This document shows, in pieces, positions 1 to 539 of a stretch of DNA of 600 nt (positions within the stretch are counted from its first letter, which is position 1; each line of letters opens with the position of its first letter). This DNA comes from Escherichia coli (GTDB lineage Bacteria > Pseudomonadota > Gammaproteobacteria > Enterobacterales > Enterobacteriaceae). Position numbers and translations under genes: made by a program. The stretch is taken from NCBI RefSeq assembly GCF_003334335.1, contig NZ_QOWQ01000167.1; one strand, 5' to 3'. Below the pieces are notes generated by a model. It worked only from the letters and a program-made list of their open reading frames with translations, searched no databases and was not told the DNA's origin.

Positions 1-191
1 AGACACTGGTCCAGCCACTTCAGGTAATCATCGTCGCCCTTCCACTGGTTATCCCAGCCCTCAGGCTTCACTTTAAAGTACGGCGGGTCCGTGACTATCA
101 GGTCAACAGAATTTTCGGGTAACGACCGGATAAATTCCAGGCAGTCGGCGTTGATTAACTCACAACTGGATATTTTTACAGTATTAAGCAT
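1..191 (-). CDS. DNA amino-methyltransferase (probable N6-adenine, beta-class), 5' portion only; the gene runs off the left edge of the window
   Basis: Hand translation of the reverse complement from the ATG at 191..189 gives MLNTVKISSCELINADCLEFIRSLPENSVDLIVTDPPYFKVKPEGWDNQWKGDDDYLKWLDQCL, uninterrupted to position 1. An in-frame TGA sits immediately upstream (197..195), so the ORF cannot start earlier. The motif 'SVDLIVTDPPY' (DPPY encoded at 89..78) is the catalytic motif IV of amino-methyltransferases; its position ~35 residues from the N-terminus is the beta-class arrangement (YhdJ/CcrM/M.PvuII-like). D rather than S before PPY favours N6-adenine over N4-cytosine. This ORF is absent from the supplied track, presumably because it has no stop codon inside the window. 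Confidence 0.85.
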   Translation of the reverse strand, partial: MLNTVKISSCELINADCLEFIRSLPENSVDLIVTDPPYFKVKPEGWDNQWKGDDDYLKWLDQC

Positions 192-202
192 GGATCATTA
201 AG

Positions 203-210
203 CCTGTCTC
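203..210 (-). promoter_or_regulatory. weak candidate Shine-Dalgarno region for the methyltransferase gene
   Basis: Minus-strand 'GAGACAGG'; the AGG (205..203) is 11 nt upstream of the ATG at 191, a long spacer with weak complementarity. No better SD is visible. Confidence 0.3.
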
Positions 211-223
211 TGATAGGCTCATT

Positions 224-242
224 CTGCTTTTGCGCAAAGCAG
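224..242. repeat. short palindrome (7-5-7), candidate operator or leader hairpin upstream of the methyltransferase gene
   Basis: 'CTGCTTT' (224..230) and 'AAAGCAG' (236..242) are exact reverse complements separated by 'TGCGC'. Lies 33..51 nt upstream of the methyltransferase start codon. Confidence 0.45.
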
Positions 243-283
243 TGGGCCTGAGGTTTGCTTGTGATCCGGACGCATGAGCAGAT

Positions 284-314
284 GGCTGGTGAGTGCCCCT
301 AACACCCACCAGCC
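284..314. repeat. GC-rich inverted repeat / stable hairpin, function unknown
   Basis: 'GGCTGGTGaGTG' (284..295) pairs with 'CACcCACCAGCC' (303..314): 12 positions with one mismatch (292/306), 7-nt loop 'CCCCTAA'. Not followed by a T-tract on either strand, so not a canonical terminator. Confidence 0.55.
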
Positions 315-327
315 GCCCATTTACCAC

Positions 328-355
328 AAATAAAAAAGCCTTCACTGCGGAAGGC
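328..355 (-). terminator. putative Rho-independent terminator of the 65-aa ORF
   Basis: Minus-strand transcript would read GCCUUC-CGCAGU-GAAGGC (6-bp stem 338..343 / 350..355, 6-nt loop) followed directly by UUUUUUAUUU (337..328). The stem is short (4 GC pairs of 6), hence moderate confidence. The ORF's stop codon is embedded in the stem. Confidence 0.5.
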
Positions 356-539
356 GTCTGTAACAACCGAACTGATAGTCTGCCAGACCCGCCATAACCA
401 GCTGGGTCAGTATTAACTGGCAGCGTTCGCGTGAAAGGTAAGTATTCTGCGCAATCTCCCCGACTGTCGCCGGTTCGGTGGCACTTAATTCATTAAACAC
501 CACTCTGGCGGTTTCTGTCATATCCTGCTGTTTTAGCAT
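342..539 (-). CDS. small (65 aa) hypothetical protein, putative winged-helix/HTH DNA-binding regulator
   Basis: Part of the supplied 77-aa minus-strand ORF (342..575). I place the start at the ATG at 539..537 (MLKQQDMTETARVVFNELSATEPATVGEIAQNTYLSRERCQLILTQLVMAGLADYQFGCYRRLPQ) because it has an SD-like 'AAGGG' (552..548) 8 nt upstream, whereas the track's start at 575 is a TTG with no usable SD spacing. The stretch 'TVGEIAQNTYLSRERCQLILTQLVMAGL' has the helix / turn / recognition-helix pattern seen in winged-helix regulators. The stop TGA (344..342) lies inside a terminator-like hairpin. Coding status is moderately supported; the functional call is by eye only. Confidence 0.6.
   Translation of the reverse strand: MLKQQDMTETARVVFNELSATEPATVGEIAQNTYLSRERCQLILTQLVMAGLADYQFGCYRRLPQ

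Follow-up and report, generated by a model that had tools for sequence, protein, structure and literature searches.

The window analysed here, meaning the whole 600-nucleotide (nt) stretch of Escherichia coli DNA on contig NZ_QOWQ01000167.1 (RefSeq assembly GCF_003334335.1), carries on its minus strand a small open reading frame (ORF), a spacer and the start of a DNA methyltransferase gene. We compared the spacer across phages and prophages of many genera and found a conserved leader RNA with two alternative folds, which probably gates translation of methylases of the M.EcoGII family. A region of E. coli EC931 (locus L001) matches the window at 99 % identity. The window was found in 2,283 of the 5,426 complete E. 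coli genomes (~42 %), with up to 8 copies per genome; several copies are common. The two-ORF arrangement is far above chance expectation. An original prediction, made from the letters of the window, had described two co-oriented genes, a structured spacer of about 150 base pairs (bp) and a methyltransferase with a DPPY motif, and this description was right in all its details. It overlooked that the methylase is the characterised M.EcoGII and that the spacer is a conserved regulatory element. The principal parts of the window are the following:

539..342, minus strand: ORF of 65 amino acids (aa), from translation (ATG 539-537, TGA 344-342), encoding a free-standing winged-helix protein, MLKQQDMTETARVVFNELSATEPATVGEIAQNTYLSRERCQLILTQLVMAGLADYQFGCYRRLPQ; phrog_331 (function unknown), E = 2e-37
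355..338, minus strand: intrinsic terminator-like hairpin GCCUUCCGCAGUGAAGGC with a U-tract at 337..328, overlapping the stop of the 65-aa ORF (terminator scan; L001 8862..8845)
341..192, minus strand: spacer of 150 nt between the 65-aa ORF and the methylase ORF
328..184, minus strand: structured leader RNA of ~145 nt, ending 8 nt into the methylase ORF (covariance model, 126.5 bits, E = 5e-28)
191..1, minus strand: 5′ end of the methyltransferase ORF, 63 codons (ATG 191-189; DPPY motif IV at codons 35-38)

The start of the 65-aa ORF is preceded, at ~8-13 nt, by a Shine-Dalgarno-like stretch that contains GGG.

The methylase and its place in the late operon

M.EcoGII is in wide use as a reagent for chromatin and RNA footprinting and is thought to help prophages escape restriction. 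The methylase residues encoded in the window agree at every position (63/63) with the N-terminus of M.EcoGII given in Table S1 of the SUPREM paper (PMC11551740), a reference sequence that was taken from the machine-read PDF table. Only these first 63 codons lie inside the window, and full-length tests used the homologue at L001 (7649-8698). This protein of 349 aa is ~94 % identical to M.EcoGII over the full length and matches Pfam N6_N4_Mtase (PF01555) over residues 29-340 with E = 2.8e-42, a significant profile match that bears out the predicted beta-class amino-methyltransferase. The motif order is that of the beta class, with DPPY near the N-terminus and FFMGSGST (FxGxG) near the C-terminus, and its nearest relatives of solved structure, M.RsrI and CcrM for example, are likewise of this class. 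The methylase of the window is thus an orthologue of M.EcoGII and almost certainly the same, already known, enzyme.

M.EcoGII and M.EcoGI, both from prophages of E. coli O104:H4 C227-11, belong to this family of prophage-borne beta-class enzymes with the DPPY...FxGxG order (Murray et al. 2018, PMC5778455), and the residues in the window show no difference from M.EcoGII. M.EcoGII, an enzyme of E. coli prophages, methylates every adenine without sequence specificity and acts on single-stranded RNA too; it is unexpressed in the lysogen and harmful if constitutive (PMC5778455). The same publication notes the silence in the lysogen, and its description contains no upstream ORF, terminators or leader RNA (PMC5778455). 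Our literature searches likewise returned no description of a leader, of antitermination or of late-gene status for M.EcoGII.

At L001 a Q-like antiterminator gene (phrog_127) is followed by a terminator, the 65-aa ORF, a second terminator, the spacer and the methylase. The genes 3′ of the methylase are those for three transfer RNAs (tRNA-Ile, tRNA-Arg, tRNA-Arg), iraM and a nanS-p-like gene, and then holin, lysozyme and spanin. The iraM/nanS-p-like position is the slot where Shiga-toxin phages carry stx; the module is also present in Shiga-toxin phages, directly upstream of the stx slot. Just after Q, a block GGTAAATTTG..AACGATGGG is common to the L001 locus, phage SfV and phage λ, and on the strength of established λ biology it is the λ pR′ -10 element together with the σ70-dependent pause element where Q loads. 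A consensus scan found no sigma-70 promoter-like site between Q and the methylase, the spacer and the region upstream of the 65-aa ORF included. The terminator at 355..338 is kept in the E. coli, SfV and cdtI copies and deleted in the Morganella and Providencia phages. The module is therefore placed in the late transcript behind two terminators; this transcript would depend on Q, an arrangement that fits the silence of the methylase in lysogens.

The locus resembles the late operon of λ (pR′, Q, tR′) in that the conserved -10 element and AACGAT pause block after Q are followed by an intrinsic terminator, and the module lies between Q and the lysis genes. λ itself has no methylase in that slot, whereas the window-type locus adds a second terminator and the leader RNA. 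The λ gene orf-64 (L246, 822-1016), which occupies the Q-S slot and is of near-equal size, has no detectable similarity to the 65-aa ORF. Phage cdtI (L003, 1334-2722) has an insertion of two genes on the opposite strand between Q and the 65-aa ORF; either the late transcript there would have to run through 1.4 kb of antisense sequence before the module, or the module is served by a promoter of its own.

The original prediction had also offered two settings for the gene pair, a controller-regulated restriction-modification system and a phage orphan-methylase module. No endonuclease partner was present in five annotated contexts (L001, SfV, cdtI, and the Morganella and Providencia phages), and therefore the controller-type system is ruled out. 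The module is instead flanked by phage genes, namely the Q antiterminator on one side and tRNA and/or lysis genes downstream. The C-protein type II systems resemble the locus in having a small helix-turn-helix-type gene beside a methyltransferase gene. The window locus differs from them in that it has no endonuclease and no detected promoter or C-box, lies in a phage late operon and encodes a protein that is not of the Xre/HTH_3 type; moreover, the gene 5′ of which its small gene is located is the methylase, not a C-R unit.

A leader RNA with two alternative folds

The minimum free energy (MFE) of the spacer corresponds to a z-score of -3.4, and together with the covariation described below this indicates that the spacer is really structured, as had been predicted. 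The covariance model R1 gave 44 strong matches, all directly 5′ of the methylase start, and weaker matches in three Vibrio loci. The leader is conserved from Escherichia to Vibrio, and more so than the flanking coding sequence: a block of ~40 nt shows no change from E. coli to Morganella phages, while the identity of their small proteins is only ~44 %. Two folds, which we call state A and state B, were derived for the leader, and their elements are listed here:

243..319, minus strand: state A three-way junction formed by P1, P2 and P3 (pair counts over diverse copies)
319..315 with 247..243, minus strand: P1, UGGGC/GCCCA, which closes the junction; 98-100 % paired
314..303 with 295..284, loop 302..296, minus strand: P2, 12-bp hairpin inside P1; 93-94 % paired, 9-10 of 12 pairs compensated
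282..274 with 262..254, minus strand: P3, 9-bp hairpin inside P1; 76 % paired, 5-7 of 9 pairs compensated
224..242, minus strand: P4, separate hairpin 3′ of the junction, CUGCUUU, loop GCGCA, AAAGCAG; 85-90 % paired
306..313, minus strand: Chi octamer GCTGGTGG in the 5′ arm of P2, incidental to the RNA element
267..257 with 203..192, minus strand: state B start-sequestering helix GGAUCA-C-AAGC/GCUU-AA-UGAUCC, which abuts the AUG; MFE fold
320..315 with 279..274, minus strand: state B companion helix AUGGGC/GCUCAU, P1 5′ strand with P3 5′ strand; MFE fold

State A was tested on 41 diverse copies in two alignments, one made with MAFFT and one model-based, the latter including Vibrio. Its cells are paired at 87.5 % in the MAFFT alignment, compared to 31-42 % in slid controls, and at 89.3 % in the model-based alignment, compared to 31-41 %. 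The pairs that have changed on both sides number 17 of 32 (controls 4-8) and 24 of 32 (controls 6-9), respectively. With MAFFT, none of 500 shuffles reached the observed values on four of five measures; with the model-based alignment, none of 500 reached them. Double changes in P4 affect 2 of 6 pairs in the MAFFT alignment and 6 of 6 in the model-based one; P4 is also a perfect DNA palindrome, TGCTTTGCGCAAAAGCA.

The minimum-energy fold of the window is state B and not the three-way junction; it contains, beside the two helices listed, a third one of GGCCCAC with GUGAGCC. The GGAUCA-C-AAGC strand of state B consists of the loop and the 3′ strand of P3, and the two states are mutually exclusive. 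State B can form in nearly all copies. Its helices are paired in 93.7 % of cells, compared to 26-41 % in slid controls, and positions that covary within P3 stay pairable, by way of wobble, with their state B partners. A lineage-specific extension of the start-region helix changes in step on both strands (AAGC/GCUU, GGA/UCC, GAG/CUC, GGG/CCC). Cognate duplexes of the P3 3′ strand with the start region have a mean energy of -10.6 kcal/mol against -9.16±0.23 kcal/mol for permuted partners, and 0 of 5000 permutations were as low. Of 40 copies, 32 favour state B energetically, with a mean free-energy difference (ΔΔG) of -3.9 kcal/mol.

The methylase has no canonical Shine-Dalgarno sequence. An invariant UGAUC, 1 nt before the AUG and complementary to GAUCA near the 3′ end of 16S ribosomal RNA, is its sole Shine-Dalgarno-like element. 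UGAUC lies within the state B helix, so translation would be blocked in this state if UGAUC is the ribosome contact. A further pairing, AUCAG/CUGAU just 5′ of the start, was considered and dropped because U-to-C changes break it without compensation.

Four Vibrio loci (L235 2352-2468, L243 2335-2445, L236 and L245 2365-2526) carry M.EcoGII-family methylases preceded by ORFs for zinc-finger proteins like Com of phage Mu, annotated in PHROG as 'translational regulator' and 'gpCom'. In three of the four, the leader stands upstream of the com-like gene and not of the methylase; the com-like ORF that follows the leader encodes 36-38 aa. The equivalent of P3 in these copies, GUCAUAAG, is perfectly complementary to CUUAUGAC, which spans the start codon of the com-like gene. 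This duplex reaches -10.6 to -12.0 kcal/mol compared to -4±1.9 kcal/mol for shuffled sequences, and cross-lineage pairs reach only -6 to -8 kcal/mol. The Vibrio copies thus lend independent support to state B, with a helix retargeted to the com-like start codon.

Nothing similar to the leader is in Rfam 15: for the copies of the window, L001, L201 and L235, no family approached its gathering score, and this includes all riboswitch classes for S-adenosylmethionine (SAM) and S-adenosylhomocysteine (SAH). Fragment matches to P26 and MicC/isrJ were rejected as terminator-like chance matches. We therefore describe the leader as a widespread bistable RNA that is apparently undescribed.

The 65-aa protein and its linkage to the methylase

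The substitution pattern of the 65-aa ORF (26/16/58 % at codon positions 1/2/3 over 335 pairs) and its 341 homologues are those expected of a real gene, as which we regard it. An AlphaFold2 model built from a 22-sequence alignment (mean predicted local distance difference test score, pLDDT, 92.4) shows a canonical H1-H2-H3-β-hairpin winged helix with helices at 9-16, 26-33 and 37-49 and strands at 53-56 and 59-62. The most conserved stretch of the family, RCQLILTQ..AGL, lies on helix 3, and the protein of the window contains no CxxC pairs. Foldseek aligned the model with winged-helix domains at template modelling (TM) scores of 0.7-0.8 and E-values of 1e-3 or weaker. The OhrR and IclR domains scored 0.77-0.81, and other matches were the N-terminal domains of several SAM-dependent methyltransferases, T4 MotA and the RNA-binding winged helices of SelB.

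The original prediction of a putative winged helix that is not of the Xre type therefore stands, and the Xre-type HTH_3 profile gave no match. Winged-helix families were matched in Pfam, all below threshold. The best Pfam match was TrmB with an independent E-value of 1.3e-3; all others, MarR and HTH_24 included, were at 0.017 or weaker. There was no NCBIfam match and no curated family at significance in Pfam or NCBIfam, and the PADLOC defence families gave only a weak SWIM match. The family is narrow, with 86 cluster representatives among 1.84 billion proteins, essentially all of them free-standing proteins of 60-110 aa and none with a domain fusion. Its nearest outside relative, and the sole long true match, is the C-terminal winged helix of DprA. 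One variant of 90 aa (P0121) has the helix 2 and helix 3 segment duplicated in tandem, so that TTGVSEARCQLILTQLVLAGLAKDNGGY occurs twice.

Among E. coli-type viral contigs, the gene after the small ORF is the methylase in 70 of the 73 informative cases, and the methylase has the small ORF on its 5′ side in 76 of 77. These counts agree with the predicted conserved, co-oriented orphan-methylase module of phages. A wider set comprised 80 loci with one genome per species, from Providencia to Vibrio. Here the small ORF lies directly upstream at 52 of the 80 loci.

The three linkage exceptions (L006 2460-2470, L007 and L021) are deletion variants in which homology stops exactly after GCTGGTGGGTG in the leader. 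In all three the methylase and the tRNA genes are gone, and unrelated sequence leads into a 660-aa nanS-p-like gene. The breaks resemble junctions left by deletion or recombination at the hairpin that contains Chi. The complementary arm of P2 reads GCTGGTGA (plus strand 285-292), which is a perfect Chi in L001 and L230, and L001 has another Chi on the gene strand, 3′ of the first terminator and 5′ of the small ORF (~9130-9137, minus strand).

Proposed control of the methylase and alternative explanations

We consider it on balance probable that the late-operon position, the bistable leader and a trans-acting factor together keep the methylase silent until late lytic growth. A λ-type pR′ and two terminators upstream would form a first layer, so that only Q-modified RNA polymerase should reach the methylase gene. 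In the second layer, state B would keep translation off by default, with the 3′ strand of P3 paired to the 10-12 nt 5′ of the AUG, UGAUC among them. The same strands would be held within the three-way junction P1-P2-P3 in state A, leaving the start region free. The third layer would be a trans-acting factor that stabilises the three-way junction and thereby shifts state B to state A. We infer both the default-off translation and its switching on by a junction-stabilising factor from these comparisons. The likeliest candidate for this factor, which we put forward only tentatively, is the small protein encoded with the leader, i.e. the 65-aa winged helix or, in Vibrio, the Com-like zinc finger. 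This suggestion was made because of the parallel with phage Mu, where Com opens the translation-inhibition hairpin of mom.

The leader is best classed with Mu mom-like translational control of a toxic DNA-modification gene. Both systems have a toxic late gene for broad-spectrum modification, a gene for a small protein upstream in the operon and a start region in an RNA helix, which in our case is computational. There are differences, too: the small protein is a winged helix here and a zinc finger in Com, with zinc-finger Com-like ORFs found only in the Vibrio relatives, and the leader is a bistable three-way-junction RNA of ~145 nt, compared to a single hairpin in mom. Mu is controlled by C, Dam and OxyR, whereas the phage type of the window is lambdoid and Q-controlled. 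The combination of com with a non-specific adenine methylase is a known arrangement of Mu-like prophages, as seen for Hin1523, Hia5 and Nma1821 (PMC3299994). Hia5 and Hin1523 are Dam-like, whereas the methylase of the window is of the beta class.

Several findings weigh against this model, both in its RNA part and in its trans-acting step. All of the RNA evidence is comparative and thermodynamic. The support for P1 comes from a single compensatory event. State B was derived from the same sequences on which it was tested; its variation is mostly one-sided and wobble-preserving, and its covariation is weaker than that of state A. In the copies of Yersinia, Hafnia alvei and Erwinia, state A is the favoured fold, and at -2.8 kcal/mol the start-region duplex of Yersinia is weak. 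The role of UGAUC as a ribosome contact is presumed from its sequence.

As to the trans-acting factor, 15 of the 80 loci have no small ORF and keep the spacer and methylase almost unchanged. These include loci of Yersinia, Ewingella, Rahnella, Hafnia, Serratia, Trabulsiella, Lonsdalea, Enterobacter, Kosakonia, Kluyvera and Rosenbergiella, and in 2 of the 15 a Q-like antiterminator is the next gene 5′ of the leader. Conversely, ~30 loci of Xenorhabdus and Photorhabdus (L173-L200 and L214; ~2400-2510) keep the small ORF and have a spacer truncated to ~100 nt. Still present are GUGAAAUGG, the P2 hairpin and AUUCGCCUGUU; the remainder of P3 is lost, as is the 3′ strand of P1, and these truncated spacers gave no match to the covariance model. 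The small protein is therefore not an obligatory partner of the leader, and the constant unit is the spacer plus the methylase, with the 65-aa ORF being dispensable. The family of the small protein is acidic, with a mean net charge of -2.0 and an isoelectric point (pI) of 5.4 (net charge -1 for the protein of the window). This is unusual for a stand-alone DNA binder and indirectly speaks against sequence-specific DNA binding. Acidity and dispensability together argue against an obligatory role. The regulator that the original prediction saw in the 65-aa protein has thus found no backing: nothing shows such a role, the protein is acidic, and it is gone from the 15 loci.

Could the winged helix, as the original prediction had it, be a transcription factor akin in function to a controller protein that binds the spacer DNA, for example at the P4 palindrome, and sets the timing or level of methylase transcription? 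Its confidently predicted fold, with the MarR/OhrR and IclR DNA-binding domains as best matches, would suit this role, as would the sub-threshold TrmB, MarR and HTH_24 matches, NCBI names such as 'TrmB family transcriptional regulator', the position of the most conserved stretch on helix 3 and the perfect palindrome itself. We nevertheless regard this as quite unlikely, given the acidic family, the lack of a sigma-70 promoter-like site from Q to the methylase, the near-constancy of leader and methylase in the 15 loci that have no small protein, and the absence of a restriction gene from the locus. Pairing in the leader is moreover kept through G·U wobbles and in long-range pairs (P1, state B), which are relevant in RNA only.

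The leader might instead be a metabolite riboswitch, with the three-way junction as an aptamer for SAM, SAH or a methylated adenine derivative, the start helix as expression platform and the small proteins as passengers. The invariant junction and loop nucleotides amid variable, covarying stems are aptamer-like, and the platform helix is mutually exclusive with the junction. Furthermore, the leader forms a unit without the winged-helix ORF in 15 loci, and in Vibrio it precedes the first gene, whichever that is. Translational riboswitches built on a three-way junction (purine and similar) share with it a P1 around two hairpins, a conserved junction and an exclusive helix at the ribosome region. 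On the other hand, the leader resembles none of the Rfam riboswitch classes, and its aptamer-like domain is ~55 nt from the AUG with the extra hairpin P4 in between. It is not obvious why late genes of phages should need to sense metabolites, and two unrelated small proteins of nucleic-acid-binding type, the winged helix and the Com-like protein, recur beside the leader, which points to a protein effector. We therefore hold the riboswitch to be unlikely. Taken in its widest form, the proposal would be a new class of bistable RNA that gates translation of promiscuous adenine methylases of phages in Enterobacterales and Vibrio, with either an acidic 65-aa RNA-binding activator, analogous to Mu Com but of unrelated structure, or a small-molecule aptamer in the three-way junction and hence a new phage-borne class of riboswitch; in this form we consider it possible but doubtful.

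Autogenous control has also to be weighed, in which M.EcoGII binds or methylates its own leader, thereby limiting its translation, and the winged-helix protein is a partner of the methylase (inhibitor, chaperone or dimerisation aid). M.EcoGII does act on single-stranded RNA (PMC5778455), the leader travels with the methylase rather than with the small ORF, and the top Foldseek matches of the acidic small protein are the N-terminal winged helices of SAM-dependent methyltransferases. This case is purely circumstantial, however. The winged helix is fused to no methylase among the 86 cluster representatives, and the Vibrio leader controls the com-like cistron and not the methylase start directly, for which reasons we give autogenous control little credence. 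The conservation might finally lie at the level of DNA (a Chi hotspot or a junction of mosaic modules) or in a short leader peptide, without any RNA switch. Chi is indeed present in P2 (313..306), the three deletion variants break exactly after it, and an invariant AUG opens an ORF of ~33 codons in some copies. Yet Chi is replaced by unrelated but still paired sequences in at least six genera (Providencia, Yersinia, Ewingella, Serratia, Lonsdalea and Vibrio), and the ORF is conserved neither in length nor in frame: in many copies it stops at codon 4, 7, 13, 16, 18 or 27, and the frame shifts between lineages. Chi as the cause of spacer conservation and the leader peptide were both rejected on these grounds. 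Compensatory changes in 24 of 32 pairs are likewise unexplained at the DNA level. This explanation is already refuted in large part, and we see hardly any chance for it.

The model that we prefer, a two-state leader combined with Q-dependent antitermination and small partners that vary between lineages, offers a testable answer to the restraint of M.EcoGII in its native setting. If it is true, the leader would be a new RNA family in the control of phage late genes, and broad-spectrum DNA modification by a strategy similar to that of Mu mom would have arisen convergently in unrelated phages.

Outside the module, a match to the small RNA STnc100 of Rfam lies near iraM on the 3′ side of the tRNA cluster of L001 (7200-7273, minus strand). 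Clipped at its 3′ end by the limit of the searched range, it scores 48.8 bits against a gathering score of 47.

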